Positions 3,235 through 20,719 of a stretch of 20,783 bases of DNA are shown here, piece after piece. The notes beneath the pieces were generated by a model. That model did not search any database, was not told the origin of the DNA, and worked only from the letters and a program-made list of their open reading frames with translations. A program made the position numbers and the translations under genes. Position 1 is the first letter of the stretch, and each line of letters opens with the position of its first letter. This DNA is from a virus, in the UHGV virus genome UHGV-0270338. The stretch is one strand, 5' to 3'.

Positions 3235-3237
3235 GGA

Positions 3238-4208: not shown

Positions 4209-4258
4209 CCAGTGGCGGTAACCGACCTTGCAGGGTCGATATGATGAGGAGCAGCAAA

Positions 4259-4622
4259 ATGGCTAGCGAACGCAGTACTGATGTGCAGGCATTTATCGGG
4301 GAGCTGGACGGCGGCGTATTTGAAACCAAAAATCGGCGCAGTTCTCAGTGAAGTCGCTTCCGGTGTGATGAACACGAAAACCAAAGGTAAGGTCTCGCTC
4401 AACCTAGAAATCGAACCGTTTGATGAGAACCGAGTGAAAATCAAACACAAACTCTCATATGTTCGCCCGACTAACCGCGGGAAAATTTCCGAAGAAGACA
4501 CCACCGAAACGCCGATGTATGTCAATCGCGGTGGTCGCCTGACTATTCTGCAGGAAGACCAGGGACAGTTGCTGACTCTTGCCGGTGAACCTGACGGAAA
4601 ACTCCGCGCAGCAGGTCGTTAA
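4259..4622 (+). pseudogene. yfdP: yfdP-like gene interrupted by a frameshift in an A5 tract
   Basis: ATG at 4259 with strong SD (gaggag) opens a frame that stops after 30 codons; the 4281..4622 ORF continues in the adjacent frame; deleting one A from aaaaa (4328..4332) fuses them into about 120 aa. Confidence 0.45.
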
Positions 4623-4687
4623 TATCGTTTTTAATTAACTGATTATTTATCTCATCACTGAATATCTTTATATAGTGAGGACTTATT

Positions 4688-5512: not shown

Positions 5513-5639
5513 TTTCATTACTGCAAATGCCCCTGCGGGGGCATTTATGGAAACGTAATTTACTCAATAATCGCCGGATGGTGAGGGATTCTTTTTACCA
5601 GAATTCAGCGCGGTGCAGCGCATATACGTGGAGAACAAA

Positions 5640-6176
5640 ATGTCATTTATTAAAACTTTTTCCGGGAAGCATTTTTATTATGACAGGATAAATAAAGACG
5701 ACATCGATATTAACGATATCGCGGTTTCCCTTTCAAATATCTGTCGCTTTGCCGGTCATCTTTCGCACTTCTACAGCGTCGCCCAACATGCGGTTCTTTG
5801 CAGCCAGCTGGTGCCGCAGGAATTTGCTTTTGAAGCGTTAATGCATGATGCAACAGAAGCGTATTGCCAGGACATTCCCGCACCACTGAAACGCCTTCTT
5901 CCTGACTATAAACAAATGGAAGAAAAAATAGACGCCGTAATCCGTGAGAAATACGGGTTACCCCCAGTTATGAGTACGCCCGTGAAATATGCCGATCTCA
6001 TCATGCTGGCAACCGAACGCCGCGATCTCGGGCTTGATGATGGCTCTTTCTGGCCTGTACTGGAAGGTATCCCGGCAACAGAGATGTTCAACGTGATTCC
6101 ACTGGCACCGGGCCATGCCTACGGGATGTTTATGGAACGCTTTAACGAGTTATCGGAGTTACGCAAATGCGCATGA
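5640..6176 (+). CDS. yfdR: YfdR-like HD-domain phosphohydrolase (5'-deoxynucleotidase family)
   Basis: Start moved to ATG 5640 (SD ggaga 5 nt upstream) giving 178 aa; HD-type motifs (HFYSVAQHA, LMHDATEAY). Confidence 0.65.
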   Translation: MSFIKTFSGKHFYYDRINKDDIDINDIAVSLSNICRFAGHLSHFYSVAQHAVLCSQLVPQEFAFEALMHDATEAYCQDIPAPLKRLLPDYKQMEEKIDAVIREKYGLPPVMSTPVKYADLIMLATERRDLGLDDGSFWPVLEGIPATEMFNVIPLAPGHAYGMFMERFNELSELRKCA

Positions 6177-6529
6177 ATGTTTTCGAAATGGAAGGGTTTC
6201 TTCGTGGGAGATGTGTACCGCGAGATCTGAAAGTAAATGAAACAGATGCTGAATACCTGGTGCGTAAATTCGATGCGCTTGAAGCTAAATGTGCAGCACA
6301 GGAAAACAAAGTAATACCAGTGTCAACTGAACTGCCACCAGCAAATGAAAGTGTTTTGTTATTCGATGCTAACGGAGAAGGCTGGCTAATTGGCTGGCGT
6401 TCTCTCTGGTACACCTGGGGACAAAAAGAAACCGGAGAATGGCAGTGGACATTTCAGGTCGGGGACCTTGAAAACGTCAATATCACTCACTGGGCAGTAA
6501 TGCCAAAAGCACCGGAGGCTGGAGCATAA
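6167..6529 (+). CDS. yfdS: YfdS-like (DUF551) prophage protein
   Basis: 120 aa; synteny after yfdR-like; start overlaps yfdR stop. Confidence 0.5.
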   Translation: MRMNVFEMEGFLRGRCVPRDLKVNETDAEYLVRKFDALEAKCAAQENKVIPVSTELPPANESVLLFDANGEGWLIGWRSLWYTWGQKETGEWQWTFQVGDLENVNITHWAVMPKAPEAGA

Positions 6530-6834
6530 TGACCACTTTTACCGACAAAGAACTGATTAAAGAAATTAAAGAGCGTATCAGCAGCCTTGACGTGCGAGAC
6601 GATATTGAGCGCCGTGCTTATGAAATCGCACTCCTATCTCTGGAAGTAGAACCAGATGAACGCGAAGCTTATGAATTATTCATGGAAAAGCGTTTCGGTG
6701 ACTTAGTAGATCGTCGGAGAGCAAAAAACGGCAATAACGAATACATGGCATGGGATATGACTCTCGGTTGGATCGTCTGGCAGCAACGAGCTGGTATCCA
6801 TTTTTCAACAATGTCACAGCAAGAGGTGAAATAA
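6529..6834 (+). CDS. yfdT: YfdT-like prophage protein
   Basis: 101 aa; synteny; overlaps neighbours by 1 nt on each side. Confidence 0.45.
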   Translation: MTTFTDKELIKEIKERISSLDVRDDIERRAYEIALLSLEVEPDEREAYELFMEKRFGDLVDRRRAKNGNNEYMAWDMTLGWIVWQQRAGIHFSTMSQQEVK

Positions 6835-7184
6835 TGGAGCCATACAGCCTCACACTCGATGAGGCCTGTCATTTTCTCAAGATATCCAGACCGACTGCCA
6901 TTAACTGGATACGCACAGGGCGTCTTCAGGCAACACGCAAAGATCCCACTAAGAATAAATCTCCTTACCTCACAACACGACAAGCCTGCATTGCGGCTCT
7001 TCAGTCTCCGCTGCATACTGTCCAGGTGAGCGCGGGTGATGGCATAACAGAGGAAAGAAAATGTCACTCTTCCGCAGAGGTGAAATATGGTACGCCAGTT
7101 TCACATTGCCGAACGGTAAAAGATTTAAACAGTCTCTTGGAACAAAGGACAAAAGGCAGGCGACAGAACTCCATGACAAGCTAA
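6834..7184 (+). CDS. xis: Excisionase (Xis), P22-type
   Basis: 116 aa from ATG 6834 (SD gaggtg upstream; TAATG overlap with yfdT stop); HTH-like [26 protein letters not shown]; 3' end overlaps int start as in lambdoid int-xis modules. Confidence 0.6.
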
Positions 7185-8224
7185 AGGCTGAAGCATGGCG
7201 GGTCAGCAAACTTGGTGAAATACCTGATATAACGTTCGAGGAAGCGTGTGTCAGGTGGCTTGAAGAGAAAGCACATAAAAAATCACTGGACGATGACAAA
7301 AGCCGGATCGGATTCTGGCTTCAACATTTCGCAGGAATGCAACTAAGAGACATTACTGAATCAAAAATTTATTCAGCAATGCAGAAAATGACGAACCGGC
7401 GTCATGAGGAAAACTGGAAACTCAGGGCAGAAGCATGCAGAAAAAAAGGGAAACCTGTTCCAGAATACACGCCAAAACCAGCGTCCGTTGCAACGAAGGC
7501 TACGCATCTTTCATTTATAAAGGCCCTACTAAGAGCCGCAGAGCGTGAATGGAAAATGCTGGATAAGGCACCAATTATTAAAGTGCCTCAACCAAAGAAT
7601 AAACGGATCCGCTGGCTGGAGCCCCATGAAGCACAAAGGCTGATTGATGAATGTCCGGAGCCATTAAAGTCTGTTGTTGAATTTGCACTGGCAACAGGCT
7701 TAAGACGCTCGAACATCATCAACCTTGAATGGCAACAAATAGATATGCAGCGCCGGGTGGCATGGATAAACCCGGAAGAGAGTAAATCAAACCGCGCAAT
7801 TGGCGTTGCGCTGAATGATACTGCATGTCGCGTATTGAAAAAACAAATCGGGAATCATCACCGTTGGGTATTTGTGTACAAGGAAAGCTGTACCAAACCA
7901 GACGGAACGAAAGCGCCAACAGTAAGGAAGATGCGGTATGACGCAAACACAGCCTGGAAAGCGGCGCTGAGACGGGCTGGTATTGATGATTTCAGATTTC
8001 ACGACTTGAGACACACCTGGGCAAGTTGGCTGGTTCAAGCCGGAGTCCCGTTGTCAGTTTTACAGGAAATGGGAGGCTGGGAGTCTATCGAAATGGTTCG
8101 TCGATATGCTCACCTTGCACCTAATCACCTTACCGAACACGCACGGCAAATAGACTCGATCCTGAATCCATCGGTCCCAAATTTGTCCCAGTCAAGAAAT
8201 AAGGAAGGTACTAATGATGTGTAA
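7061..8224 (+). CDS. int: Tyrosine integrase, P22-family-like
   Basis: 387 aa; catalytic signature ATGLRRSN (R), FHDLRHTWA (HxxR), VRRYAHL (Y); stop codon 2 nt before the tRNA-Thr-derived att repeat. Confidence 0.85.
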
Positions 8225-8343: not shown

Positions 8344-9678
8344 ATGCGTTACAATCAATTTTCACATTACAAACGCTCCGACACTTTAGCCGGGGAGTTT
8401 ATGAGATACAAGCCCAATCAATACATAATCTGTGATTCTTACGGTAACTACTATTTACGGATCACGCTGCCTGTGTATATGCAGCCCTTTTTTGAAGGAA
8501 AAAGGACGTTTGTCAGGAGTCTGCACACAAGTAATCTTCGTGTTGCACGTAGAAAGCGTGATCAGATTGCAGATGAATACCATTGCTTACGGGAGAGTGT
8601 TGCCCCTGTAAACAGCACAATAGAGAACACGCTGGAACTGTTACGCAGTAAGGCTAAATACGCCAAAACAGCTACCAGAATGCAAGATACAGCGTCTTCG
8701 TGTCCGTCATTGCTTAAAATTCTTGAAATCTACCTGACAATTAACAGCACGAAGAAGAAGCCAGCCACTTTAGCTAAGGCAAGAAAAGCGGTAGAGATGT
8801 TTCTCTCCTACCGTAAAAAGCCTGATATTGCATTGCAAGATGTAAGCCGCACCACTGTTACAGGCTGGATTGAACACATGCAAAAAACCCTTTCACAACA
8901 ATCAATTGCAAATTATATCAGCCCAATGGCCCAGCTATGGGAGTTAGCTTCATCACGTTACCACGATGCGCCAGAAAGGGCGCTCTCCCCCTGGCGAGGG
9001 CATAGGCTTGATGTGGCACAAAGTAGAGAGAGCTACGAGGCATTTTCTAACAAAGAGCTATTGCAGGTGTTGCAAGTATTTTCCGGTAATTCAGCAGAAA
9101 ACAAAGAAATGATGGCTTTGTGTCTTATCGGTGCTTATACAGGTATGCGGATCAATGAGATAGCAAGTCTCACAATAGACGATGTGAAAGAGATCGAAGG
9201 TGTGCTGTGTTTTGAAATCACACAGGGAAAAACGAAAGCTGCGGCGCGTGTTGTGCCTGTACATAGCCTTATCACTCCGTTGGTGTTGTCGCTGCGTGAA
9301 AAGCCTCATAATGGCTTTTTGTTCTATCACGCCAGCATCACAGAACGTGCTGATGGTAAACGTTCCACGTGGCACACGCAGAGATTTACAAGAGCTAAAC
9401 GAAAGGCTTTAGGGGAAAAGGGAACAGAAAGGAAAGTGTTTCATTCTCTGAGACACGGAGTAGCACAGCTTCTTGATCGAAATCAAATTCCAGAAGACAG
9501 GATCGCCCTTCTCCTGGGCCATACACGCGGCAATACAGAGACATTCCGCACATATAGCAAGAATGCAGCTTCTCCAGTAGAGCTTAAAAAATATATTGAG
9601 CTTCTACGCTACCCTGAAATAGAGAAAGGCTTATCAATCAATAAAAAATCAAATTTAAGGCGTAAAACAACGCCATAG
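8344..9678 (+). CDS. Tyrosine integrase of the second element
   Basis: 444 aa (alternative start ATG 8401 with ggggag SD gives 425 aa); motifs TGMRINEIASL (R), FHSLRHGVAQLL (HxxR), LLGHTRGN...FRTYSK (H, Y); unrelated in sequence to the upstream int. Confidence 0.8.
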   Translation: MRYNQFSHYKRSDTLAGEFMRYKPNQYIICDSYGNYYLRITLPVYMQPFFEGKRTFVRSLHTSNLRVARRKRDQIADEYHCLRESVAPVNSTIENTLELLRSKAKYAKTATRMQDTASSCPSLLKILEIYLTINSTKKKPATLAKARKAVEMFLSYRKKPDIALQDVSRTTVTGWIEHMQKTLSQQSIANYISPMAQLWELASSRYHDAPERALSPWRGHRLDVAQSRESYEAFSNKELLQVLQVFSGNSAENKEMMALCLIGAYTGMRINEIASLTIDDVKEIEGVLCFEITQGKTKAAARVVPVHSLITPLVLSLREKPHNGFLFYHASITERADGKRSTWHTQRFTRAKRKALGEKGTERKVFHSLRHGVAQLLDRNQIPEDRIALLLGHTRGNTETFRTYSKNAASPVELKKYIELLRYPEIEKGLSINKKSNLRRKTTP

Positions 9679-9686
9679 ACGCAATA

Positions 9687-9720
9687 AAGAGGCTTCAACA
9701 TAGATTGGTAGCCTCTTTTA
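9687..9720. terminator. Bidirectional hairpin terminator between int2 and the convergent minus-strand operon
   Basis: aagaggct ... agcctctt 8-bp stem followed by tttta on plus strand and preceded by aataaa. Confidence 0.45.
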
Positions 9721-9759
9721 TAATTACATCGTTACAGAGCGTTTTAGAGGCATTTACGG

Positions 9760-10473
9760 CTATTCCTGTTTAAAGGCAGGAGTAATAGTGTCTTCACCTT
9801 CACTACTTGATTTTTCAGTGTTAACACGTTTTTTCATATTAGCCCCGATGTTCTTAGATGGCTGTGTTTTGATAGCTACAGTGTTTACAGTGCCATAAGA
9901 AACGAGCCTGATCTGCTCAAAGCTAAGATCAAATACTAGGGATTCGCTTGCCTCTTCTGTGTATTCGATGCCTGTTAAAACAACGTTCTCAAAAGTTTTA
10001 TTTTCTGTAACAAGAAGAAAAGGCTGTCTACTGTCCATAATCTGATTCAGATAATCAATCGCTAATGATCTTCTGTTCCCGTTCACCCCTGCACTCTTTA
10101 ACAAGCCAGGATCGCTTTTAATCGGTGTTTCAGTGATCCTTCCTTTAAGAGAAAACTTATTGTTTTTAATTTGAACGTGATCCGATACATTAGCACCATT
10201 TTCTACGGGGTAGCTTGTAACATCTGCCGAACGTCTCACGTTCACATCGTCAACACTGTCAAAGGCCAGTGCCATATAATTTTCATAAACGTCATTACCA
10301 GAAGATGCCAGCCCACTGGTAACAATAGCAAATCCATTTTCTCCTTTTGTTTTATTGGCTTTGCTATTTTCGTTTTTTGTAGAGTTTATATCTTGTTCTG
10401 CTTTGTAAACAGCCTGAACGTGTTGTTCTGGAGTATTTGCTGCACGTATGGTTAAAATCCCGGCGGTCGCCAT
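9760..10473 (-). CDS. Hypothetical protein, last gene of the structural-like operon
   Basis: 237 aa ORF, Ser/Thr/Asn-rich; no recognisable motif. Confidence 0.45.
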   Translation of the reverse strand: MATAGILTIRAANTPEQHVQAVYKAEQDINSTKNENSKANKTKGENGFAIVTSGLASSGNDVYENYMALAFDSVDDVNVRRSADVTSYPVENGANVSDHVQIKNNKFSLKGRITETPIKSDPGLLKSAGVNGNRRSLAIDYLNQIMDSRQPFLLVTENKTFENVVLTGIEYTEEASESLVFDLSFEQIRLVSYGTVNTVAIKTQPSKNIGANMKKRVNTEKSSSEGEDTITPAFKQE

Positions 10474-10506
10474 AATAATAATTTCCTTGTAATGTTATGG
10501 CGGGAA

Positions 10507-12345
10507 TTACCCGCCGTTGGATTGTCCTGATAAGCTGGTTAATGTTAATGATTTCAAGAAGCTATCCCGACTTGCTCTCGCTGTAAAATCCACATAATCG
10601 CTTAATCTGGATGTGTCAGAATTAATAGTAAGAGGAACTTCTGTTACCACTTCAAATGTAGGATTCAGATTAAACACAGGAGATAAATTATAAGCCGGAG
10701 TTGTCATTGCAAGATTATTTAAAGCACCCTGTTTGAGATTGGTTATCGGTGCTTCGCTGACTGACATTTTTACATCTGACACAGAAGAAGCATTATCATC
10801 GAAAAGCAATCCCTTAAGAGTGTTAAAGAAAGAATGACTATTATCAGGTGTAGTTGTTGCAGTGCCAGCGCCTTTATATTGGTCAGGAACGAGCTTAGAA
10901 AGATGCTGTTTCATCCCTTCATTGCTTAATGGCGGTGCATCTCCCATATTTTTCTGAATAGCATCTGTCTTATCATCATTACGATTAAACCAGTTTACAA
11001 TCTTCATAATGGCTTCAAAAAGACTTCCTGACGCTTCTCCTAGCCTTGTAAAATACGGAGTGAGATTAGAAAGGTTTTTCATAAACTCTTCCGTTACTTT
11101 TGGATCGAGAGATTTCATAAAGCCGTCTACGAATGCTACTTGTCTTGCATCAGAAAGCTGTGAAAGCTGTCTGTTTAGTTCTCTGAATTTAACAATAGAG
11201 TCTTGCTGTGTTTCTGTTAGCCATTTTCCAGAGGCTTTTTGCTGATTAATACTTTCTTGTACATCTTTAACGGAACGTTGCCAATATTTTGACGTAAGCA
11301 TCAAATCATCGCCCAGGTCTTCTAAACGTTGTCCAATTTGGGAGTCTGAAAACCCTTTTTTCATCATTCCATTAACAGCCTTAGAAATTAATCCGGCTGG
11401 ATTATCAGCAAATTTTTTAAGGTCGCTCTTGTTAATAACACCGATGTTTAGAAGTTCATTAATAGCGTTATCACCGCCTTTCCATTCGCCGCCTTTACCA
11501 GTTTTTTTATCGACTACATATTCAGCTTCACTATAGGATTTTGCGGCACGTTCCCTAACATCTTTCATCTGATCCAGGTATTTCCTAGCCCCTTGATCAC
11601 CCATCATAGAGTCAACGCCGTTTCTATAGGCCCATTCTGTAATGTTGTACATCTGGTTAACGTCTACACCGCCAAGCCTTGCACGTTGAATTAGCTCACC
11701 TTGTGTCTCTGCGTTAGCGAAACTGTTACTAACAAACTCCGACGCTTTACTAACAGCCATCACGCCAGCAGCCGCTGTAGCGCCTCCAAATAACAGAGCA
11801 CCCATCGTGGCGGAATTCCCTGATCCTCCTCCCTTAACGGGGGCTAATTGAGCTTTTCTGTTGCCATTAATCTTACGTTGTTGCTGTTGTAGGCGTTTCA
11901 TCTGACTATTCATACGTGCAAGCGAGATAGCCCCTTGCTCATATTGTTTTGCTATCTCTCTAGCCTGTGCAATAGCTTTGTATTGTTCCGCTACAGAGAG
12001 GCGGTGCATTGCACTGATAGAGCTTGACACATCAAGGAGTTTTAATTCTGCTTTCTCTTTACGTGCTGCTATTTGTTGCTGTTGCCTTGCCTGTGCTCTT
12101 GCTGCGGCAGCTTGTGCTCTTTGATTTTGTTTTTCGGTTTTAGCTTTCTGTTGAGCAATCTTATCTACTTCACTTTGTGCTTTCTTATAGCCTTTAGTGA
12201 CATTATCAAACCTTAATTTAGCGGGCTTGATGTTTTCTGCGAATTCCTTTAAGCCTGTAATAGAGTCTTTCGCTTTTTTCAAGCTGTCTTTATCTACACT
12301 AAATGTTACTGTGTTCTTAATTTTAGAAGTGTTAATTTCTAACAT
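10507..12345 (-). CDS. Coiled-coil protein with Gly/Ala-rich hydrophobic segment (tape-measure-like or scaffold-like)
   Basis: 612 aa; N-terminal Q/A/K/R-rich helical region (AQAAAARAQARQQQQIAARKEKAELK), then GGGSGNSATMGALLFGGATAAAGVMAV; no Walker A or other catalytic motif seen. Confidence 0.5.
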   Translation of the reverse strand: MLEINTSKIKNTVTFSVDKDSLKKAKDSITGLKEFAENIKPAKLRFDNVTKGYKKAQSEVDKIAQQKAKTEKQNQRAQAAAARAQARQQQQIAARKEKAELKLLDVSSSISAMHRLSVAEQYKAIAQAREIAKQYEQGAISLARMNSQMKRLQQQQRKINGNRKAQLAPVKGGGSGNSATMGALLFGGATAAAGVMAVSKASEFVSNSFANAETQGELIQRARLGGVDVNQMYNITEWAYRNGVDSMMGDQGARKYLDQMKDVRERAAKSYSEAEYVVDKKTGKGGEWKGGDNAINELLNIGVINKSDLKKFADNPAGLISKAVNGMMKKGFSDSQIGQRLEDLGDDLMLTSKYWQRSVKDVQESINQQKASGKWLTETQQDSIVKFRELNRQLSQLSDARQVAFVDGFMKSLDPKVTEEFMKNLSNLTPYFTRLGEASGSLFEAIMKIVNWFNRNDDKTDAIQKNMGDAPPLSNEGMKQHLSKLVPDQYKGAGTATTTPDNSHSFFNTLKGLLFDDNASSVSDVKMSVSEAPITNLKQGALNNLAMTTPAYNLSPVFNLNPTFEVVTEVPLTINSDTSRLSDYVDFTARASRDSFLKSLTLTSLSGQSNGG

Positions 12346-12359
12346 TTAAAATCCCCTTA

Positions 12360-12563
12360 TTAATCATTTTTACCACCTTCTTTACTTAAGAAATGGTGTA
12401 GAGCCTGATCAATACTCTCGTTTAGTCTGAACATACGGGCTTTTACTCCTTCATATGGAACATCTAAGAGAGAACATAGATATTTCAGATTTAACAAGCC
12501 TCTTGAATCATTAGCATCTAAATGTACGTGTACACCATTTTTTGATTTCAAAATCACTTCCAT
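12360..12563 (-). CDS. Hypothetical small protein
   Basis: 67 aa; SD gaggtga upstream of ATG; directly follows an internal terminator. Confidence 0.4.
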   Translation of the reverse strand: MEVILKSKNGVHVHLDANDSRGLLNLKYLCSLLDVPYEGVKARMFRLNESIDQALHHFLSKEGGKND

Positions 12564-12587
12564 ATTTTAATCACCTCTCAAAATTTA

Positions 12588-12632
12588 AAAAATAAATAAA
12601 AAAAAGGCGAAGCGTGAATACACGCCACGCCT
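12588..12632 (-). terminator. Rho-independent terminator immediately after the capsid-like gene
   Basis: Minus-strand RNA forms aggcguggcgug-uauu-cacgcuucgccu followed by an 8-U run (plus-strand A-run 12590..12604). Confidence 0.6.
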
Positions 12633-12649
12633 CTATTACACGTTAAATA

Positions 12650-13678
12650 TTATTTAACAGTGATTTGAACGGAGAAGCCTACACCGTGGTTTACAACCAT
12701 CTGGCTATTCTCTGTAACAACGTTAACAGCATCACCACGAGAAGATTCATAGCTATAGCTGTACACCTCAGCAGGAGCGGCATTAATCAGTTCAAAGGTG
12801 CTGGAAGCAGCCCCGTAGATGTTCTGATATACATTAGAGCCTTTAGCAAACTTCGGAACCGCTACAGCGTCTGCGGTCATATGTGCAAGGTGTAGCGGAT
12901 CTACCAGTTTAATAACATCAATGTTAGTTCCTGGAATAGTGAACGCTGTCACCCCCGGTAGCAGGTCACGACGCTGGTACACAACATTTCCCTCTTCCAG
13001 TGGGCTTACATACTGGAATGCGTTTGCCATACCCGCAGAGAATCGAATTGCAGAGAAGGCTTCCGGCTTACAGAAAACAACAATACGCTCTACAGCAGCC
13101 GCCTGGCTTTGTGCTTTCTCGATAATGTCAGTAGCAATCTGATCAAATTCTTTAAAAATCTTCGTGGTGTCAGTGCTGGAGGCGTTAACAGTGGCTTTCA
13201 TAGGTGTCACATTAAACAGCTTGCCCCACTCGATAAGAACATCATCAGTTTTCGGGGTGTAGGTGCGACCACTAAACAGAGAAGCAGCCAATACGCTCTC
13301 TTTTGTACGCTGATACGCTACGTGGTGTTTAGCAACATAGTCAGCATAGATATCAGTGAGTGTTTCCTGAAAATCAGTGCCAGGCTTACGCTTGCCTTGC
13401 ACGTCCTGCGGTTTGATCAGGTCTTGCCTTAAAAAGTACGGGATTTCAATAAGATATTCTTTACCTTGTTCTCGCTTAGTAACGTTGTGTTCAGAAGAGA
13501 AACGAGAGGTTTCTTTGTTGAACAGAGATTCGTTGCTTTCGACAAGCTGGGAAACAGCTACTTTATGAGATGTAACCCCTACAGAATCCGTAAAATCAAG
13601 AGTAGAGAGCAGATAGTTTCTAGTGCTATGAGCCTGGAAAAGCGGAGCTAAATCAACGTAATCATTACCTAGAATCAT
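12650..13678 (-). CDS. Putative HK97-fold major capsid-like protein
   Basis: 342 aa; segment RIVVFCKPEAFSAI...MANAFQYVSPLEEGN resembles, from memory, the conserved region of podovirus T7 gp10-type capsid proteins; followed by a strong terminator as is typical for a major structural gene; no signal peptide. Confidence 0.45.
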   Translation of the reverse strand: MILGNDYVDLAPLFQAHSTRNYLLSTLDFTDSVGVTSHKVAVSQLVESNESLFNKETSRFSSEHNVTKREQGKEYLIEIPYFLRQDLIKPQDVQGKRKPGTDFQETLTDIYADYVAKHHVAYQRTKESVLAASLFSGRTYTPKTDDVLIEWGKLFNVTPMKATVNASSTDTTKIFKEFDQIATDIIEKAQSQAAAVERIVVFCKPEAFSAIRFSAGMANAFQYVSPLEEGNVVYQRRDLLPGVTAFTIPGTNIDVIKLVDPLHLAHMTADAVAVPKFAKGSNVYQNIYGAASSTFELINAAPAEVYSYSYESSRGDAVNVVTENSQMVVNHGVGFSVQITVK

Positions 13679-13696
13679 TTATTATTATTCCTTTTA

Positions 13697-14059
13697 TTAA
13701 GAAGTGAAAACAGAGTGGAACCCTTCAAGCTGGAAGCCTTTTTTAATTAATGCTGTTTTTGCTGCTTCACTTACAGCATTCAGCGCATCAGCTTTGATGC
13801 AGACAAGGCCAGCATTGCTACGTAGCACATCTACAGGCTTGTTGTCTCCAGCCGTTAAAAACTCACTCATAACAACATAGATATCATCTCCTGATACATA
13901 TTTAGCGCCAGTGCTGGTGATCAAGTCGCCGCATTCAACATCAGCAGGAAGAGAAGCAAAAACCTTGCTTTCTACAGAGGCAAACGGATCAGTACAATAA
14001 CTTACAATATCTGTGAAAGTCTTTCGAACTGGAAATAGAGTGTCTAAATCAATAATCAT
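13697..14059 (-). CDS. Hypothetical protein (possible head accessory, decoration or scaffold protein)
   Basis: 120 aa; immediately upstream of the capsid-like gene, start overlaps stop of preceding ORF. Confidence 0.35.
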   Translation of the reverse strand: MIIDLDTLFPVRKTFTDIVSYCTDPFASVESKVFASLPADVECGDLITSTGAKYVSGDDIYVVMSEFLTAGDNKPVDVLRSNAGLVCIKADALNAVSEAAKTALIKKGFQLEGFHSVFTS

Positions 14060-14268
14060 TTAGTAATCTCCTTAGCTTTTAATTTGATTAATTCATTAAG
14101 GGAAGGTGTAGACGGAGAAGAAGGAGAAAAATATTTTTCAACACAACGTTCCACTTCTTCGACAGAACACCCAGCGTATTTAGCTACCATTTCGGTAATT
14201 TGTGGATTGATCTTTAGCATTTCATCGCGATACTTGATGATTTGCTCTTTATCATTTAAAAACAACAT
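14056..14268 (-). CDS. Hypothetical small protein, first gene of operon B
   Basis: 70 aa; translationally coupled (ATGA overlap) with the next gene. Confidence 0.35.
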   Translation of the reverse strand: MLFLNDKEQIIKYRDEMLKINPQITEMVAKYAGCSVEEVERCVEKYFSPSSPSTPSLNELIKLKAKEITK

Positions 14269-14303
14269 TTATATAAACCTTGTTACCTTGTTTAAAGTAA
14301 GAA

Positions 14304-14323
14304 ATACAACTTTTAAGTTGTAT
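14304..14323. promoter_or_regulatory. Perfect palindrome ATACAACTT-TT-AAGTTGTAT, candidate operator at the operon B promoter
   Basis: 9-bp inverted repeat with 2-bp spacer between the upstream terminator and the first ORF of operon B. Confidence 0.4.
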
Positions 14324-14335
14324 AACGGGCAAAAT

Positions 14336-14365
14336 AAAAGGCAGCATTTAGAGCCGCCTTTTATT
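14336..14365. terminator. Bidirectional hairpin terminator separating operon A from operon B
   Basis: aaaaggcagc-atttaga-gccgcctttt, flanked by A-run and T-run. Confidence 0.5.
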
Positions 14366-14392
14366 AACTTGTACCTATGTAATTACCCTATG

Positions 14393-14420
14393 TTATGCAT
14401 ACTCCAAGATGTATGCATAA
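14393..14420. promoter_or_regulatory. Two copies of palindromic octamer TATGCATA (ttatgcatac ... gtatgcataa), candidate operator
   Basis: Inverted pair of 10-mers, each containing a self-complementary TATGCATA. Confidence 0.35.
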
Positions 14421-14611
14421 CAAAGGAAAAAAGAGGTAATAATGACACTTAAGGAGGAGGAGAAGCGGGGAGCGGAGATTTTACTCCCCTTTAACGACAA
14501 GAAGAATTTTTAATATCGAACCAATAAAGGAAAAATAATCACCCTATATAATTATATTAACATACAATAGATGAAATGTCAAGATATTTTACAACTTTTT
14601 TGTTGCTTTTT

Positions 14612-14974
14612 TTATTCTTCTGTGATAACGGCTAAGCGTTGAGCGAGTTCGATAAGGCCATCTCCCACATAGCGAACATCAGATTCAATATCTTCTATCC
14701 AGTTTGATAGCTCCCATATCTGATCGGCTGTCAGGTATGCGTTCTCACGCTTACAGAGCATCTCTACACGCTTAGAGAGGTGCTCAAAGGCATTTACAGC
14801 TAAATCCCAGTGTTTAAACGCCTCATTAAGTGCCGCTGGCGTATTTTCTTTATATGCATCAAGTTCAGCGCGGTTTAAAGGCAGGAGGTAATCATCCTCA
14901 TAATAATTAATTAGTGAGTAAATTGTATCATACGTGTTTTTGTTCATATTAAAAGTCTCCATAGTGATCATCAT
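14612..14974 (-). CDS. Hypothetical helical protein
   Basis: 120 aa ORF; likely true start at internal ATG (MNKNTYD..., ggag 9 nt upstream). Confidence 0.4.
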   Translation of the reverse strand: MMITMETFNMNKNTYDTIYSLINYYEDDYLLPLNRAELDAYKENTPAALNEAFKHWDLAVNAFEHLSKRVEMLCKRENAYLTADQIWELSNWIEDIESDVRYVGDGLIELAQRLAVITEE

Positions 14975-15356
14975 TATCTAAATGGAATTCAGGAACTAAA
15001 TTATTTAGGCCATTGGTGGCGAGATAACCAACGTAGTGGTTATAGTCTTCAAATCCTAAAATCTGGTATTTGCGTAAATCAGAGCTGTCAACGATATACT
15101 CTTTTCTTTTTCTAGGTTTCCAGAACACGCCAGGTGTTGAAGATAAGATTTCTTGTAATGCGATATATTCATCTCCACAAGGCACAGAGGGAGAATGTTC
15201 TATGATCTCTGTTTTCCATTCGCCAGGGGCGCTATTTTGCTTGGAGAGCGTAACTAGCTCTTTAAAGTCTTTGCGTCTTAGAATAGATTTAGGTTTACTT
15301 AGAAGAGAAGCTGAATCACCGATTTTCTTAACAACGTTGTTTTTTCTTTTTGCCAT
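14949..15356 (-). CDS. Hypothetical protein with basic N-terminus and acidic C-terminus
   Basis: 135 aa; MAKRKNNVVKK N-terminus; ends ...HLDNDDHYGDF. Confidence 0.4.
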   Translation of the reverse strand: MAKRKNNVVKKIGDSASLLSKPKSILRRKDFKELVTLSKQNSAPGEWKTEIIEHSPSVPCGDEYIALQEILSSTPGVFWKPRKRKEYIVDSSDLRKYQILGFEDYNHYVGYLATNGLNNLVPEFHLDNDDHYGDF

Positions 15357-15485
15357 TTATTTTTCCTTTTCTTTTAAAGGAAAACACCCCGAAGTATGTT
15401 TCTAACGTGAGAAAGAACAATAACCAATACATAGCTACTATCATAATAATGTTTTCCTTTTATATTTTAATTACATAGAGAGATT

Positions 15486-15761
15486 TTAGAGAGTGGAATA
15501 GATGAATTCTACTTTACCCAGTCTTTTGAGATTGAATGTAGAGAAAGATAATTCTTTAATCTCTATAACACCGAAATTTGATAGCTGTCTAAGCCAGAAT
15601 TTTAAACCATCTTCAGAGCAAGCTGCTCGATGTAACACATCGCTATATTTTAGCGGTGTTGGCTTTCCTTTATAGAGGTAAGCAAGTGTCTCGTAGATGC
15701 GTTTTCCTGTGTCATTACACTGAATTCTGTCTACTTGATTTTTTACTAAATATTGAATCAT
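15486..15761 (-). CDS. Hypothetical small protein
   Basis: 91 aa ORF in operon A. Confidence 0.4.
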   Translation of the reverse strand: MIQYLVKNQVDRIQCNDTGKRIYETLAYLYKGKPTPLKYSDVLHRAACSEDGLKFWLRQLSNFGVIEIKELSFSTFNLKRLGKVEFIYSTL

Positions 15762-15772
15762 AACCCTCCTTA

Positions 15773-16429
15773 TTAAAATGGAATATCAAAGTCATCATAC
15801 ACATTTGGGTAATGCTTAGAAAAATATGCCTCAATACCATTTGGTAGCTTTAACCTGTGCTTATAGGCTAACGATGTTGCAAATTCTATAAATGATGCTC
15901 CTCCTGTTCTTTTGTCTTTCTTCTGGATGATAAGAGAGGCAAAATTCTCTAACACATCCTCCTCATTATCATTAGCTACCTTTTCACTTGATGAAACAGG
16001 TGTTTCTTCCGTCTCCCACGGTAAAGGCGTATCCCAATCATCATCAAGAACATCAAAAGAAGACTCTTTATTATCTTCCGTAGGGGGAAGCTGATCAGGA
16101 ACAGCTTTAACAGTAGCTTCTTGTTGTGTCTGGGCTTCTTGTCTAGCTTCTTCTTGTGGAATATCTACCACTTGATAGACATTAGAACTTCCTGGTCGTG
16201 CATCTTTTATAATTAATCCCATTTCGAGCAATTTCTTAACCCTTTCCTCTGCTGCTCTTGGTGTTATGCCAAAAACATCGCCTATCTTAGCGTAAGAGGG
16301 AAATGCACGATCAAACCCTTTCAGATAGCAGTAAAGGTTTTTAGCACTATCTGTAAATTTATGCCCGTTTACTTGGCTTATTTTTAGAATCCACATAGGA
16401 ACTTTTACAAATTGTTCTTCATTAATCAT
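15773..16429 (-). CDS. Winged-helix DNA-binding protein with acidic linker and SSB-C-terminal-tip-like tail (candidate replication initiator / host replisome recruiter)
   Basis: 218 aa; N-terminal HTH-like segment (FPSYAKIGDVFGITPRAAEERVKKLLEMGLI); long D/E/Q-rich linker; C-terminus ...YDDFDIPF, close to the E. coli SSB tip DDDIPF. Confidence 0.55.
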   Translation of the reverse strand: MINEEQFVKVPMWILKISQVNGHKFTDSAKNLYCYLKGFDRAFPSYAKIGDVFGITPRAAEERVKKLLEMGLIIKDARPGSSNVYQVVDIPQEEARQEAQTQQEATVKAVPDQLPPTEDNKESSFDVLDDDWDTPLPWETEETPVSSSEKVANDNEEDVLENFASLIIQKKDKRTGGASFIEFATSLAYKHRLKLPNGIEAYFSKHYPNVYDDFDIPF

Positions 16430-16480
16430 TAAAAATCTCCTTATAAATCACGCTTAATGCGCTACTAAAGTGAATGAGGA

Positions 16481-16648
16481 TCACTTACCCTTTTTTTGTT
16501 TGATGTTCTCTGCTGCTTCAGTAATGATTTCTAACATCAAATCACTGACCATAATTTGCCTTTTCTTGGCTTCAGCAAATAAAACCTTGAAGATTTCAGG
16601 GTCAACGTGTAGGTAAGTGCGCGGAATTGGTTTCTTAGTTTCGCTCAT
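16481..16648 (-). CDS. Ribbon-helix-helix (RHH) DNA-binding protein
   Basis: 55 aa from ATG 16648 with excellent SD (aagaggaggag); beta-strand RTYLHV followed by two helices (PEIFKVLFAEAKKRQ, MVSDLMLEIITEA) typical of Arc/CopG/Omega fold. Confidence 0.55.
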   Translation of the reverse strand: MSETKKPIPRTYLHVDPEIFKVLFAEAKKRQIMVSDLMLEIITEAAENIKQKKGK

Positions 16649-16670
16649 AGTTTTCTCCTCCTCTTGTCTA

Positions 16671-16853
16671 TTATTCTTTCTCTGCTTCTTTCTTACGCAG
16701 TTCATCAATAATTTTCAGTGCATCGTCAAAACATTTTTCACGCTCTGGATAACCTCGACTCCTTGCCATATTACGGTTCATTACTACTTGGTGGCGTGTA
16801 AGCTCACCTTTTTTAAATGCCTGGACGACGTGCTCAGATGTAAACCATTTCAT
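16671..16853 (-). CDS. Small hypothetical protein, first gene of operon A (possible regulator or directionality factor)
   Basis: 60 aa; SD aaggag upstream; immediately upstream of the RHH gene. Confidence 0.4.
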   Translation of the reverse strand: MKWFTSEHVVQAFKKGELTRHQVVMNRNMARSRGYPEREKCFDDALKIIDELRKKEAEKE

Positions 16854-17616
16854 AAAAAACTCCTTATTCAGTTAAAAGAAATAAAACACCTTGCAAGCCT
16901 GACGGCTTCAAAGTGCATTGATTTTGATTATTTAGAGAAGAATGTTTTTCTGTCCCTCTAATACCTATTATTACATATAAAGAAACATTTGTCAATACCT
17001 TTTCATAAAAAATCTGATCTTTTTCATGCACTTACATTTTTTCTTAGCTATTCGTGCTCTTCTGTGTAGTGCTATTCTTCATTATCCGCTAAAACGCTCT
17101 AAAACGCGTTCTAACGAGATTTTGATAAAAGCAATACATTGCCTTATCTAATGGCTGTTTAGCTCGCCAGAGGCTTATTTAAGGGGCTTATTTTGTATTT
17201 GTTAGGTATATGAAAAGGTAATGGTAAATATAAAACAGAGAGTCACTTTATAAAACGCTCTGTAAAGACCTGTAGTGAGCTTATTATATGTAGGCAATGC
17301 GTTTCCATTCCCTACCCTGCTTAATGCTGTTAGAGAAGCATTTAGACCCCTTATTTTTAATTACCTAAAGTATCCTCTATACATCTCTGTTATGAAACAC
17401 CTCTGAATCCTTCATAAAACACATTATGACGCAAAGAACACTTTTCTAAGGTGATTCCCTTCCTGAACTCTGTTTCTTGCGTCAGAGAGCTACAGAGAGC
17501 TTATAAAGCTATTATTAATAATAAAGTAGATAAAGTAAGTAAGATAACTAAGATAGATAAGATTAATAAGATCAGAATTCTCTTTCGGTGTCGCCTCTGG
17601 CTTTTCCACCGAAAAC

Positions 17617-17740
17617 AATTACACGACTACAGAATGTGGAAGTGGAATTGTATTGAGGCTTAGTGAAATTACACGAGGAAAGCAGAGTGTAATTGAGCTT
17701 TAGCCGCTCTCTCTTCGAGTAATTACACAACTACAGAGAA
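17617..17740. repeat. Array of AATTACAC-containing repeats, including palindrome AATTACAC-N12-GTGTAATT (17667..17694)
   Basis: aattacacgactacaga (17617) and aattacacaactacaga (17721) are near-identical 17-mers; perfect 8-bp inverted repeat between them. Confidence 0.5.
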
Positions 17741-17995
17741 TAACGAGAGTTATTAAATGTAGGAGGGTAATTAAGAGTTAGAGAGAGTTAACACGTAAGC
17801 AATCAGTATGATTGGTTAGGTGATTACTCTTCTGCGCACAGCGCAATAGTATTTCTTCGTGGGCGTTACCGCCACGATAGTTACACGAAGAAAGTAACGC
17901 TTTGCTTTCGGTGTGAGCGGAACGGGCCAGCCAACGTAGCCCGAAAGGTAGCGGAGTAAGGCTGCTTGCCAGAGAGTGAAGCTAACGCCGGAAGG

Positions 17996-18180
17996 CAAAA
18001 GATCATATAAATAAATATATAATATTATAATTTAATAAGTAATTTAATAAATGATCTAATAGGTAACAGAATTCTGTGGGGGTGTCTAACAGAATTCTGT
18101 TAGGGTGGGGTAACAGAATTTTGTTAGGGTACAAATCTCTTTAAAAGTTAAGATTAACAGAATTCTGTGGGGGTAGCTCA
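17996..18180. promoter_or_regulatory. Origin-like region: roughly 65 bp of almost pure A/T followed by four iterons TAACAGAATT(C/T)TGTnnGGGT
   Basis: Iterons at 18064, 18087, 18111, 18155 (spacing 23, 24, 44 bp); each contains the palindrome ACAGAATTCTGT; no ORF support. Confidence 0.55.
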
Positions 18181-18224
18181 CAGTGACCTACCGTTACTAC
18201 CAATCATCACATAGCACTCACTCT

Positions 18225-18700
18225 GTGTAATGCCTTTCTATGTGTGTGCCATAATCCCCTATATTCCCTGTGTAAATCATAGAATAATGCTCTCTATTCC
18301 CTGTGTAATTCCCTACTAAAAAATCCAATGAAAAATGGCTTCAAAGTGCAATGTTAGCTTTCTTCACTTTTACATCACTTTCGCAAAGCCTTGTGTAATG
18401 CGGTTTACAGAGCACCATCAGAAATTGTTGGCTAAAAATTGTTCTGCTTGTTTCTGAACGAGTTTTCTCGTTTGTGCAAATTTTAAAATTTATTTTGTTT
18501 TTACAGCCTTATTTCGTGTAATGCGTGGCATAGCAAGCCCTTTTCTTGTGTTGTCAAGACATTTGGCAACGTTCAAACATCTGTTTAGAAATGCCAAATT
18601 GTTGATCTAACAAATAAACCTGTATAAACAGAACACCATTTAATCTATCCCCCTGTGTATCCATTAGGCATACCAAATGAATACATCTAAATCGTGTAAT
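18225..18700. repeat. Dispersed same-orientation GTGTAAT heptad motifs (about 6 copies) upstream of the serine recombinase gene
   Basis: Copies near 18225, 18269, 18302, 18392, 18517, 18694; two share the longer context tattccctgtgtaa(a)t; opposite orientation to the ATTACAC copies left of the iterons. Confidence 0.45.
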
Positions 18701-18793
18701 ATTCCGTACCCATAAGGCTTGAAACAGACCAAATGAATACGATATACTCATTTGCATTGAAGTAGTGCCAAATCGATACATTAAGAGGATTTT

Positions 18794-19333
18794 ATGAGCA
18801 ATATCGGCTATAAGCGTGTGAGCACTGTAGATCAGAACACTGATCGCCAGCTTGCAGGAGTAACGCTTGATAAAGTCTTTGAAGATAAGCTGTCAGGTAA
18901 AGACACTAACCGTCCAGGATTGCAGGCGTGTTTATCCTATCTGAGAGAAGGCGACACCTTACACGTGCACTCTCTCGACCGTTTAGGACGTAACACCTTA
19001 GACATCCTTGCTTTAGTTGAACAACTTAATAATCGAGGTGTGATTGTTCGATTTCACAAAGAAGGAATCATTGCAGACATTACAAGCGCGATGGGAAAAA
19101 TGATGCTTACTATGTTGTCGGCAGTTGCAACGTGTGAACGTGAACTGATGTTAGAGCGTAAACGAGAAGCGCAAGCCGTCAATCCTACAAAGCGTGGTAA
19201 AGGTAAAGCAGTAGATAGGGAAGGTATAAAGAAAGCCCTTTCCGCTGGCGTGTCAGTGCGTAAAACCGCCGAGAGCTTTAATGTTGCTCCTTCAACGGTG
19301 CAACGTATCAAGAAGGAAGAAGAGGAGGCGTAA
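18794..19333 (+). CDS. Small serine recombinase (resolvase/invertase family)
   Basis: 179 aa; N-terminal YKRVSTVDQNTDRQ with catalytic Ser; GKMMLTMLSAVATCERE resolvase core; C-terminal HTH (VSVRKTAESFNVAPSTVQRIKK). Confidence 0.8.
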   Translation: MSNIGYKRVSTVDQNTDRQLAGVTLDKVFEDKLSGKDTNRPGLQACLSYLREGDTLHVHSLDRLGRNTLDILALVEQLNNRGVIVRFHKEGIIADITSAMGKMMLTMLSAVATCERELMLERKREAQAVNPTKRGKGKAVDREGIKKALSAGVSVRKTAESFNVAPSTVQRIKKEEEEA

Positions 19334-19349
19334 TGCCTCCTTGATATTT
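19324..19349 (+). terminator. Hairpin terminator overlapping the recombinase stop codon
   Basis: ggaggc-gtaat-gcctcc followed by ttgatattt. Confidence 0.4.
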
Positions 19350-19660
19350 GGGGATTCTGGATTTTCCAGATCGGGGGGCGCTGATCTTCGCGTTAAACAT
19401 TGATCACGTTTGCGCCGATTTCAGATAAAAAGGCAGCTATTAAGCAATACGTAACTTTTACAATTAGTGAAATTATCTAAAACACAAGTTATATAGATGA
19501 GAAAATGAAATATTATCTTGAACAAATCAAACAAAACAACACATCATCTTGTTGACACCATGCAAAGTGAATAGTAAGCTATTATATGTGAAAATTTGCA
19601 CATTGCATGCAATAAAAAATAAATGATACCTTGTTGTTGTTAAATCAATAGGGGGTATCT

Positions 19661-19819
19661 ATGCGCTTTATCTTATCCATTTTAAAAACCTGCAGAACCA
19701 CAATTACTTTAGCTGTAATTGTTACCATCATATACCTCATCTATTTTACCCCTCGAGATAAAATCGATTCACTAGCGATCATCGTTCATGCAATGGCTAC
19801 ATTAACTAAAAAACTTTAA
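19661..19819 (+). CDS. Small hydrophobic single-TM peptide (candidate type I toxin-like or membrane peptide)
   Basis: 52 aa MRFILSILKTCRTTITLAVIVTIIYLIYFTPRDKIDSLAIIVHAMATLTKKL; SD ggggg 5 nt upstream; below the 60-aa cutoff of the ORF track. Confidence 0.4.
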   Translation: MRFILSILKTCRTTITLAVIVTIIYLIYFTPRDKIDSLAIIVHAMATLTKKL

Positions 19820-19885
19820 TAATTTCACTATCAGGCGCACAAACACATCTTTGATTGCTGGATGTGTTATGCGCCTACTGGTGAT

Positions 19886-20038
19886 TCAATCCTTAAGCCA
19901 TTTCAACTCACTAAGGAGTTTTCTTTCTTCGTTCTCTCGCTGTTTACGCTCTAGCCAGGCTTTTCCCTCTGGCGTAGACAGGAACTTACGAGCGTGAATC
20001 TTGCGGTTATTACGTTTTATAGCTGCAATGTTTTTCAT
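19886..20038 (-). CDS. Small basic protein, convergent with the hydrophobic peptide gene
   Basis: 51 aa MKNIAAIKRNNRKIHARKFLSTPEGKAWLERKQRENEERKLLSELKWLKD; SD agagg 7 nt upstream of ATG. Confidence 0.3.
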   Translation of the reverse strand: MKNIAAIKRNNRKIHARKFLSTPEGKAWLERKQRENEERKLLSELKWLKD

Positions 20039-20627
20039 CGTGTTGCCTCTGTATTCATATGAAAATTAACAAGTTACATACTACACAGGGAGACTACGCA
20101 TAAAACACAATACAAGTAAAGATACATTTTCAAGACAATAGGAGCCATAAAGCGCCTTTGATGGTTATACCAAAAAATAAGCGCCGTAGGCGTATCCACT
20201 AAAAGGGCTTTTTCACAAAAGCTATGAAGTCTTAGCAGTTCTTCTCTTATCAGGCACCCGTTGTACTCCGGTGGACGAAACCGTGCTAGAGCTTGATTCT
20301 TTCCCGATCAAGTTAGGTTTTGAAGAGGTGGGCTTTAATCCACTATTGCACTTAAAACTCTTCCCATCATTTAGCCTGTTTATCCTCTGCAACGTCTCAC
20401 GACGTGTGGCATCATTGGACACCGCGCCAGGTGTGGAACATCTTGCTAAGAGTTTTGGTAGAAGGTTTAGAGACGGTGGCACGTCTTCCAGCTTCAAAGG
20501 AACTTGTTACGAGGTTGAGCCTGGGAACTACTCGCCCATACGTGTTACACTACCAAAGCCCATAACAACGTATAGGCGTTTGTAAGTGATAACAGAAGAT
20601 ACAATTTCTTAGAGAAGTTAAGCTAAG

Positions 20628-20662
20628 TTATTGATTTTCTTGATGGTGCCGATAATAGGAGT
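20628..20662. repeat. att repeat at the intact tRNA-Thr 3' end (right boundary of the second element)
   Basis: Matches 8226..8257 apart from a 2 vs 5 nt spacer difference. Confidence 0.85.
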
Positions 20663-20719
20663 CGAACCTACGACCTTCGCATTACGAATGCGCTGCTCTA
20701 CCAACTGAGCTATATCGGC
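20644..20719 (-). tRNA. thrW: tRNA-Thr (anticodon CGU)
   Basis: Reverse complement reads GCCGATATAGCTCAGTTGGTAGAGCAGCGCATTCGTAATGCGAAGGTCGTAGGTTCGACTCCTATTATCGGCACCA: 76 nt, cloverleaf-compatible, anticodon loop CGT, encoded CCA. Confidence 0.9.

Follow-up and report, generated by a model that had tools for sequence, protein, structure and literature searches.

Type I toxin-antitoxin (TA) systems with convergent RNAs are known from par/fst of pAD1 and from bsrG/SR4 and txpA/RatA on Bacillus prophage-like elements, with hok/sok as a further reference for the size of the encoded peptide. Prophages and satellites also carry "moron" or cargo hotspots, such as the P2/P4 hotspots and the accessory regions of phage-inducible chromosomal islands (PICIs), which hold exclusion and defense genes, and some prophages encode the large structured non-coding RNAs ROOL and GOLLD, often near tRNA genes. 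We analyzed a locus that shares features with each of these: two small convergent open reading frames (ORFs) near one end of the virus genome UHGV-0270338 (20,783 nt, the whole of which is called the window here), inside an integrative element inserted at the E. coli tRNA gene thrW. One ORF encodes a hydrophobic membrane peptide and the other a small, very basic protein, and an original prediction had read the pair as a possible TA-like addiction or exclusion module or, alternatively, the peptide as a holin-like or membrane-anchored factor. We favor, with a probability of about 0.6, a different reading in which the two abutting ORFs belong to two separate functional units, namely a core unit comprising a structured RNA and the basic protein, and an exchangeable cargo gene encoding the peptide.

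Both ORFs were found where they had been placed. The basic protein is 50 aa long instead of the 51 first given, since the 51 codons include the stop, and the gap between the two stop codons is 66 bp instead of about 67. The features of this part of the window are listed here.

19661-19819, plus strand: gene for a 52-aa single-pass membrane peptide, accessory cargo, judged from hydropathy, a family of three alleles and synteny
19825-19884, both strands: extended inverted repeat between the two stop codons
19886-20038, minus strand: gene for the 50-aa basic protein (WP_000788776.1), a core gene of the element, predicted helical hairpin
20039-20158, minus strand: spacer or leader from the RNA core to the start of the basic ORF
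20159-20581, minus strand: predicted structured RNA core, about 420 nt in E. coli, with at least 10 helices, two long-range helices and the pseudoknot-type pairing UGAUGG/CCAUCA
20227-20454, minus strand: central domain of the RNA, the region of covariance model R1 (181 bits, E 3e-44; one copy in the window)
20317-20358: E. coli-specific inserted hairpin of 42 nt within the central domain of the RNA, one of several lineage-specific insertions
20644-20719, minus strand: tRNA-Thr(CGU), thrW, integration target of the element, with the RNA and the basic ORF downstream on the same strand

The peptide gene is an optional neighbor of the basic ORF

Because ORFs of 50 aa arise by chance, conservation was the real test of both. 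Conservation in related elements, on which the original prediction depended, was found for the two ORFs alike, for the peptide in the form of three alleles. The peptide gene was present in 45 of the 166 loci that contain the basic ORF, always convergent on it and separated from it by 66, 30 or 12 nt. Where sufficient downstream sequence was available, the basic ORF occurred without the peptide gene in 110 of 155 loci, with unrelated cargo in the slot. The segment 19775-20250 is present in 510 of 5426 complete E. coli genomes (about 9%); 53 of these carriers have the window allele and 273 a second allele, and about 36% of the E. coli copies carry neither of the E. coli hydrophobic alleles searched. 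The basic ORF is tied instead to the structured RNA upstream of it: the two were found together in essentially every copy of the element, whichever tRNA is targeted. This distribution argues against a TA or addiction module made up of the two ORFs. Nor does the locus have the adjacent, co-oriented, co-transcribed and co-occurring genes of a type II TA system, as the genes are convergent and the basic ORF often stands alone.

Comparison of the loci showed that a cassette is exchanged between conserved flanks, the left one at about 19400/19436 and the right one at 19775/19888. Slots without the peptide contain other convergent genes, including several for unrelated proteins of 126-195 aa. Given its optional presence and the exchange of the cassette, the peptide gene therefore behaves as one of several alternative cargo genes. 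In the Pantoea and Erwinia copies (L009:10287-10829 and L020:10291-10833), the peptide slot encodes a type II restriction enzyme, a protein with a BsuBI/PstI-type restriction endonuclease domain, suggesting that the slot is a hotspot for defense genes or other cargo. An E. coli variant without the peptide gene (L003:14058-14418) has an AT-rich replacement cassette with a 47-aa polar convergent ORF, which runs into the end of a 52-aa form of the basic ORF (terminus ...WLREDF).

A predicted structured RNA precedes the basic ORF

An alignment of the approximately 0.6 kb from the tRNA to the basic ORF, drawn from nine genera, revealed long near-invariant blocks broken by positions that change in pairs, and the pattern of block conservation was identical at tRNA-Thr and tRNA-Leu targets. 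A conserved pattern of 25 nt pulled 154 further loci from viral and metagenome collections, nearly all with a tRNA T-arm 285-380 nt upstream and the basic-ORF motif 314-372 nt downstream of the pattern. RNAalifold, applied to 54 non-redundant sequences, gave 45 pairs, 25 of which showed compensatory double changes. An unbiased scan of column pairs added two long-range helices, in which UUGG/CCAA is exchanged for CAAG/CUUG and UCUUAGC/GCUAAGA for CUUGUCA/UGACAAG. The pseudoknot-type pairing likewise alternates between UGUUGG/CCAACA and UGAUGG/CCAUCA.

A structure of 51 pairs was assembled manually on the MAFFT alignment and compared to controls in which the partners were slid by 1-3 columns. 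In this structure 96.9% of cells form a standard pair, compared to 31-43% in the slid controls; 32 pairs changed on both sides, compared to 6-11; and 327 cells were double-changed, compared to 10-35. None of 500 shuffles matched the observed values for cells paired, double-changed pairs or cells, or the covariation score; for the measure of further pair types, 95 of 500 shuffles reached the observed value. G.U occurred 123 times and A.C 33 times, and because G.U outnumbers A.C, the folded strand is the minus strand of the window, the sense strand of the tRNA and the basic ORF. Of 22 loci that had been identified by the protein alone, 20 matched the covariance model R1, which represents the 185-nt central domain. 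The match was always upstream and on the same strand, and the thrW region of K-12, which is without this element, gave none. In the model-aligned set of 65 distinct sequences, 27 of 33 pairs were double-changed (6-11 in controls) and 97.8% of cells were paired. Judged from this covariation, positions 20159-20581 of the minus strand encode a large structured RNA.

At gathering thresholds, Rfam 15 recognized the tRNA only and no RNA family for 20159-20581, and at E<=10 with permissive filters it returned just weak matches, far under the gathering scores. A shallow search of the literature found no description of the element or of the RNA. Protein coding was considered for the RNA region and rejected: the 91-aa and 104-aa ORFs found there belong to no family, none of the three codon positions varies within the conserved blocks, and indel lengths are not multiples of three. 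No sigma-70-like site recurred at a fixed position across subtypes in the 140 nt upstream of the basic ORF, on the side of the RNA. Among 28 distinct upstream sequences, 17 had no promoter match of at least 8/12 and 11 had a weak 8/12 match that was shared within a subtype. The lack of a recurrent promoter between them is weak evidence that the basic ORF is co-transcribed with the RNA.

The basic protein belongs to a narrow family

The basic protein contains 15 lysine and arginine residues compared to 7 aspartate and glutamate residues. A search of 5.8 billion protein clusters identified 57 related clusters from Escherichia, Klebsiella, Raoultella, Enterobacter and other genera, nearly all of 49-61 aa, with KRNNRKIHARKFLxTPEGKxWLExK as the invariant core. 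Since an exhaustive profile search of 1.84 billion representatives returned only 43 clusters, almost all of small proteins, the family is narrow and stands alone. The ratio of nonsynonymous to synonymous polymorphism (pN/pS) of the ORF was 0.28 over 86 distinct alleles. AlphaFold (AF2) predicted two helices, residues 4-21 and 23-49, arranged as a helical hairpin with a predicted local distance difference test score (pLDDT) of 90. The protein had no match in Pfam, NCBIfam, PHROGs, PADLOC or PDB sequences, or by Foldseek against PDB. For KRNNRKIHARKF, a likeness to ribosomal protein L34 or to arginine-rich motifs of the lambda-N type was considered and dropped, as the Pfam scan did not support it.

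The position of the ORF is constant, 0.6-0.75 kb downstream of tRNA-Thr or tRNA-Leu. Two loci (L021 and L022) contain the basic-ORF motif without a match to the RNA model; the tRNA is 2.3-2.9 kb off, and the ORF of L022 has no start codon. Rearrangement or decay is the probable origin of both copies. L021 is labeled Chryseobacterium, and L006 and L007 are labeled as Bacillota metagenome-assembled genomes; all three have Enterobacterales-like sequence, and the odd taxon labels are likely due to contamination or mis-binning.

The membrane peptide has a conserved promoter and a predicted occluding leader

The product of the plus-strand ORF, MRFILSILKTCRTTITLAVIVTIIYLIYFTPRDKIDSLAIIVHAMATLTKKL (52 aa), has a grand average of hydropathy (GRAVY) of 1.01, and its most hydrophobic stretch of 17 residues, TITLAVIVTIIYLIYFT, has a mean hydropathy of 2.22. 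Ahead of the ORF is a Shine-Dalgarno (SD) sequence, GGGGG, at 19651-19655. The single transmembrane helix and good SD that had been noticed at the outset were thus borne out. Three divergent alleles, about 35% identical and of 52, 52 and 56 aa, occupy the same syntenic position in Escherichia, Klebsiella and Raoultella. They differ in length by an in-frame indel of 4 codons (12 nt) and have in common the start codon, the hydrophobic core, a TK(K/R)L end and a strong SD. The second E. coli allele (L004 type), MHLLSKHLHTIHFLVIDVFVVAISYRICIASSEEMDAVAIIAQAMAMLTKRL, is annotated by the Prokaryotic Genome Annotation Pipeline (PGAP) as WP_000550450.1. The window-type allele, for which there is just one protein cluster, is left unannotated by PGAP. 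The 56-aa Klebsiella/Raoultella allele was found on 310 contigs, and the K. pneumoniae gene lies in the same convergent position.

The window and L004 alleles matched no Pfam family at E<=1, the Klebsiella allele had only a sub-threshold match to Pfam DUF5652, and neither of the small proteins matched a toxin, antitoxin, holin or defense family in Pfam, NCBIfam, PHROGs or PADLOC. PDB sequences and Foldseek against PDB likewise yielded no informative match for either protein. The acidic tail of the Klebsiella allele indicates that the topology is probably N-in, C-out. The peptide family is conserved, orphan and unannotated, although small membrane peptides are already a known kind of prophage and satellite cargo. 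Upstream of the peptide gene lie the following features.

19552-19580, plus strand: sigma-70-like promoter, read from the sequence, with TTGACA (19552-19557), a 17-nt spacer and TAAGCT (19575-19580)
19587-19665, plus strand: 5' leader of about 70 nt, its transcription start inferred from the promoter

The promoter has equivalents in the other alleles, TTGACG-17-TAGACT in the L004 type of E. coli and TTGACG-17-TAAATT in Klebsiella, with Raoultella likewise. The GTTGAC of the -35 element and the TAnnnT of the -10 element are kept at identical spacing (TTGAC(A/G)-17-TAnnnT) although the surrounding DNA has diverged. A simple promoter scan missed this site because the -10 is weak. In the predicted fold of the leader, GAUACCU (19625-19631) is paired with the SD region GGGGUAUC (19652-19659), and minimum-free-energy folding sequestered the SD in each of the four leaders examined, those of the window, the L004 type of E. 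coli, Klebsiella and Raoultella. The sequences that pair with the SD differ by allele (GAUACCU/GGGGUAUC, CUUCC/GGAAG and AAUCCU/AGGAUU), and the outer stem of the leader also covers the AUG in the E. coli alleles. A palindrome, TGTGAAAATTTGCACA, at 19587-19602 coincides with the predicted transcription start; it departs from the CRP consensus TGTGA-N6-TCACA at a single position and is not shared by the other alleles.

The peptide has the size and shape of a type I toxin, being under 60 aa and hydrophobic with a transmembrane helix, an architecture common to the three alleles. Its mRNA is predicted to be held inert by 5' structure in the way of type I toxin mRNAs, a feature that is not specific to toxins. 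The suggestion of a membrane-anchored or toxin-like accessory factor thus gains from the conserved promoter, the SD-occluding leader and the membrane helix, while no match to a known toxin or exclusion family came to its aid. The sequence features fit a membrane peptide that is tightly regulated, may be toxic and serves the element as an accessory factor.

The hairpin between the two ORFs has predicted folding free energies of -30.1 and -28.8 kcal/mol on the two strands, with z-scores of -7.0 and -7.1. No canonical U-tract adjoins it on either strand. In Klebsiella a different hairpin occupies the same place and is followed by UUUUUAU on the strand of the basic ORF. The hairpin is probably a shared 3' stem-loop or an insulator for the convergent transcripts.

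Alternative readings of the locus

Several points weigh against the two-unit reading. The 51-pair structure was derived from the same alignment on which its pairs were counted, and the 65-sequence alignment was fitted to the model, so both lean towards structure; the margins over controls were large in both covariation tests. The interval between the tRNA and the RNA contained no consistent sigma-70 promoter, and the RNA may be transcribed by read-through from the tRNA or from a promoter of a non-canonical kind. The proposed binding of the RNA by the protein draws on their co-occurrence, on charge and on a predicted helical hairpin. For the peptide, the pN/pS of 0.54 comes from just 9 alleles, and the conservation of its C-terminus among E. 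coli copies is due in part to flanking DNA that they share. Finally, the peptide gene and the basic ORF are kept as a pair, always adjacent, in Klebsiella remnants truncated by IS26, as a functional link such as an antisense overlap would have it. Such an overlap is the substance of a type I-like TA reading, in which the peptide is a membrane toxin and the mRNA of the basic ORF, with a dual function, pairs with the 3' end of the toxin mRNA or the shared hairpin and triggers decay. The genes are always convergent with gaps of 12-66 nt, so their 3' ends must share or overlap the inter-ORF hairpin, and both the small hydrophobic peptide and an mRNA leader that occludes the SD are as in many type I toxins. 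However, the basic ORF is under strong protein-level selection and occurs without the peptide in most genera, the hairpin sequence differs between E. coli and Klebsiella, and retention beside the tRNA in the remnants is expected from position alone. The peptide matched none of the Hok/Gef, Ldr, TisB, Ibs and ShoB families or other toxin families (Pfam at E<=1; none in NCBIfam). No conserved antisense promoter was seen by eye in a 4-sequence alignment of the three alleles; the sole minus-strand promoter-like match (19643-19616) is unconserved, and the only antisense candidate is the 3' overlap with the basic-ORF mRNA at the shared hairpin. We consider a type I-like system unlikely here.

It is also rather doubtful, and in our estimate slightly more so, that the conserved 420-nt region is a DNA feature, such as arm sites of attP, regulatory sites or a folded single-strand origin or packaging signal, with the basic ORF encoding a DNA-binding directionality factor or regulator. 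Double-stranded binding sites do not yield 327 compensatory double changes, inserted hairpins and long-range pairings, and given the covariation the duplex-site version is unlikely. The excess of G.U over A.C points to a single folded strand, which folded single-stranded DNA would fit too. Directionality factors are indeed small basic proteins, no promoter for the RNA was found, and the region is immediately internal to the att site, where excision would place it opposite the integrase gene across attP; the predicted helical hairpin, however, differs from the winged-helix fold of Xis-type factors. For the peptide, we find it improbable that the ORF is not translated and owes its conservation to a non-coding transcript or to hitch-hiking with its flanks. 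A pN/pS only moderately under 1 would agree with this, as would the rarity with which the window-type ORF is called, but three alleles of about 35% identity keep the start, the frame, the length (save for the in-frame 12-nt indel), the hydrophobic core and a well-spaced strong SD. Least probable is a holin-like or lysis factor, the other role first envisaged for it: small size, a charged C-terminal end and a phage-related element are what one would look for, but the peptide has one helix only in 52 aa and no holin match in Pfam or PHROGs, it lies between a serine recombinase gene and the basic ORF and adjoins no endolysin or spanin gene, its promoter has the look of a constitutive and not of a late one, and it would be strange for a lysis gene to be missing from most copies of the element.

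Genomic setting

The window is a piece of E. coli chromosome that ends at thrW, and core-genome homology picks up again at this tRNA in 5411 of 5426 genomes. To its left is an integrative element of about 12 kb (about 8344-20690), inserted at thrW, which encodes its own capsid protein. Beyond the features described above, the element contains the following.

8344-9678: tyrosine integrase, at the far end of the element
9760-10473: Dit-like protein
Between the Dit-like and capsid genes: tape-measure-like protein of 612 aa
12650-13678: lambda-E-type major capsid protein
Between the capsid and Rep-like genes: several orphan ORFs
15773-16429: Rep-like helix-turn-helix (HTH) protein, a Rep-like initiator
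16961-18794: ORF-poor stretch of 1.8 kb with iteron-like repeats, unannotated in related genomes too
18794-19333, plus strand: small serine recombinase (Resolvase and HTH domains, Pfam), directly left of the cargo cassette and present in only some versions of the element

The serine recombinase is missing from L003, the E. coli variant without the peptide gene. No terminase, portal or lysis genes were recognizable in 8344-20690. The capsid protein is closest to those of deposited phages at just 23-26% identity, all of them Pseudomonas myophages, and the phage collection gave no DNA match to the region. Related copies of the element also occupy thrW in further strains of E. coli as well as in K. 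pneumoniae. The element looks like a member of an uncharacterized phage-satellite-like family that occurs in Enterobacterales, including E. coli and Klebsiella, at tRNA-Thr or tRNA-Leu.

Within the ORF-poor stretch, an iteron-like palindromic unit, TAACAGAATTCTGT(T/G)..GGGT, occurs in four copies at 18064-18183 (also 18223-18318) with spacings of 23-44 nt, and CCCTGTGTAAT repeats lie near these copies. The stretch is likely an origin or operator region. Positions 1-8224 of the window hold a second, unrelated lambdoid prophage remnant in tandem with the element, containing an O-antigen acetyltransferase-like gene (245-1336), tail-fiber and assembly genes, baseplate genes, an excisionase and an integrase (7061-8224). 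Elements are thus stacked at the thrW locus.

Insertion sequences have reshaped some copies. In strain NT1N31 (L001, 10876-12913), an IS5 copy abuts the truncated gene for the 612-aa protein and joins it to rclR. This arrangement implies that a deletion associated with IS5 removed the element's integrase end together with flanking chromosome. In K. pneumoniae L026, L027 and L030, the element has been truncated by IS26-type transposases so that only the peptide gene, the basic ORF and the RNA are left beside the tRNA, and one such remnant adjoins a class 1 integron-like dfr/integrase region.

Proposed model and comparison with known systems

In the two-unit reading, the core unit would be read from the tRNA on the minus strand, with the approximately 420-nt RNA and then the basic protein forming one putative transcription unit. 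The arginine- and lysine-rich N-terminal helix of the protein would bind the RNA, either as a ribonucleoprotein (RNP) or in an autoregulated leader, and the unit may serve to control excision or replication of the element or its exploitation of a helper. The cargo unit would consist of the 52-aa peptide with its own sigma-70-like promoter and a leader hiding the SD and the AUG; because the leader hairpin hides both, expression of the peptide should be low or conditional. By analogy with the other contents of the slot, the peptide may be a membrane-active accessory factor, most likely acting in phage exclusion or abortive infection, or else a toxin-like peptide. The strong hairpin between the ORFs would provide a common 3' end or an insulator for the convergent transcripts.

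More tentatively, the RNA and the basic ORF could constitute a previously undescribed RNP or RNA-plus-chaperone module of capsid-encoding, tRNA-integrating, satellite-like elements of Enterobacterales, in which read-through from the tRNA might report the integrated state and the module might control the life cycle or the interaction with a helper. If true, the RNA would represent a new class among large structured bacterial RNAs, one that comes with a dedicated helical-hairpin partner of 50 aa. To our knowledge, it is rare for a large structured RNA to be found with many covarying helices, and few are left to find in E. coli and Klebsiella. Carriers of this one make up about 9% of the complete E. 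coli genomes and include many clinical Klebsiella. It has a tiny orphan protein alongside and lies at the junction of a host tRNA and the element, and its role could reveal a new layer of RNA-based control in phage satellites or integrative elements. On a smaller scale, the peptide adds to the cargo repertoire a conserved, unannotated membrane protein family with what appears to be built-in translational occlusion. The locus also teaches that a small hydrophobic ORF beside a small basic ORF should not be equated with a TA pair until co-occurrence has been checked.

How the locus compares with described systems depends on the unit considered. The likeness to type I TA systems lies in a single-helix hydrophobic peptide of about 50 aa on a mobile element, a leader predicted to occlude the SD and a 3' hairpin in common with a convergent neighbor. 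In contrast to those systems, the gene that converges on the putative toxin is a conserved core gene, which encodes a protein and also occurs where the peptide is missing. Neither a dedicated antisense RNA nor a promoter for one was found, and the peptide has no sequence relation to known toxin families. Like the contents of moron and cargo hotspots, the peptide gene is self-contained, having both a promoter of its own and a 3' stem-loop, and it sits in a slot with conserved flanks and with contents that vary and include a restriction endonuclease. It differs from them in that the peptide matches no superinfection-exclusion or defense family in PADLOC or PHROGs, and an anti-phage effect is postulated by analogy.

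The locus resembles Hin and Gin switches in that a small serine recombinase gene lies immediately upstream of the outward-facing peptide promoter. The recombinase is bracketed by the arms of an imperfect inverted repeat of 20 nt (18473-18492 and 19583-19602), the right one just past that promoter. A Hin-type invertible-promoter switch was rejected, however: the repeat was not found in other alleles, all 18 of 18 recombinase-bearing loci are colinear, and in Klebsiella the recombinase is in the opposite orientation with the promoter still beside the peptide ORF.

For the core unit, Rop/Rom of ColE1 is likewise a very small protein of a mobile replicon, with a helix-turn-helix hairpin like the one predicted here, and is associated with a structured RNA, but the basic protein is far more basic, has no sequence or Foldseek similarity to Rop/Rom, and is only a putative RNA binder. 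The RNA itself is most like ROOL and GOLLD, with which it shares a length of several hundred nucleotides, many helices, long invariant stretches, variable inserted hairpins, a pseudoknot-type pairing and a place in a phage-related element beside a tRNA. Unlike them, it matches no Rfam model of those families and occurs in Enterobacterales only. We know of no dedicated gene for a 50-aa basic protein with ROOL or GOLLD, whereas the RNA described here is invariably followed by one.

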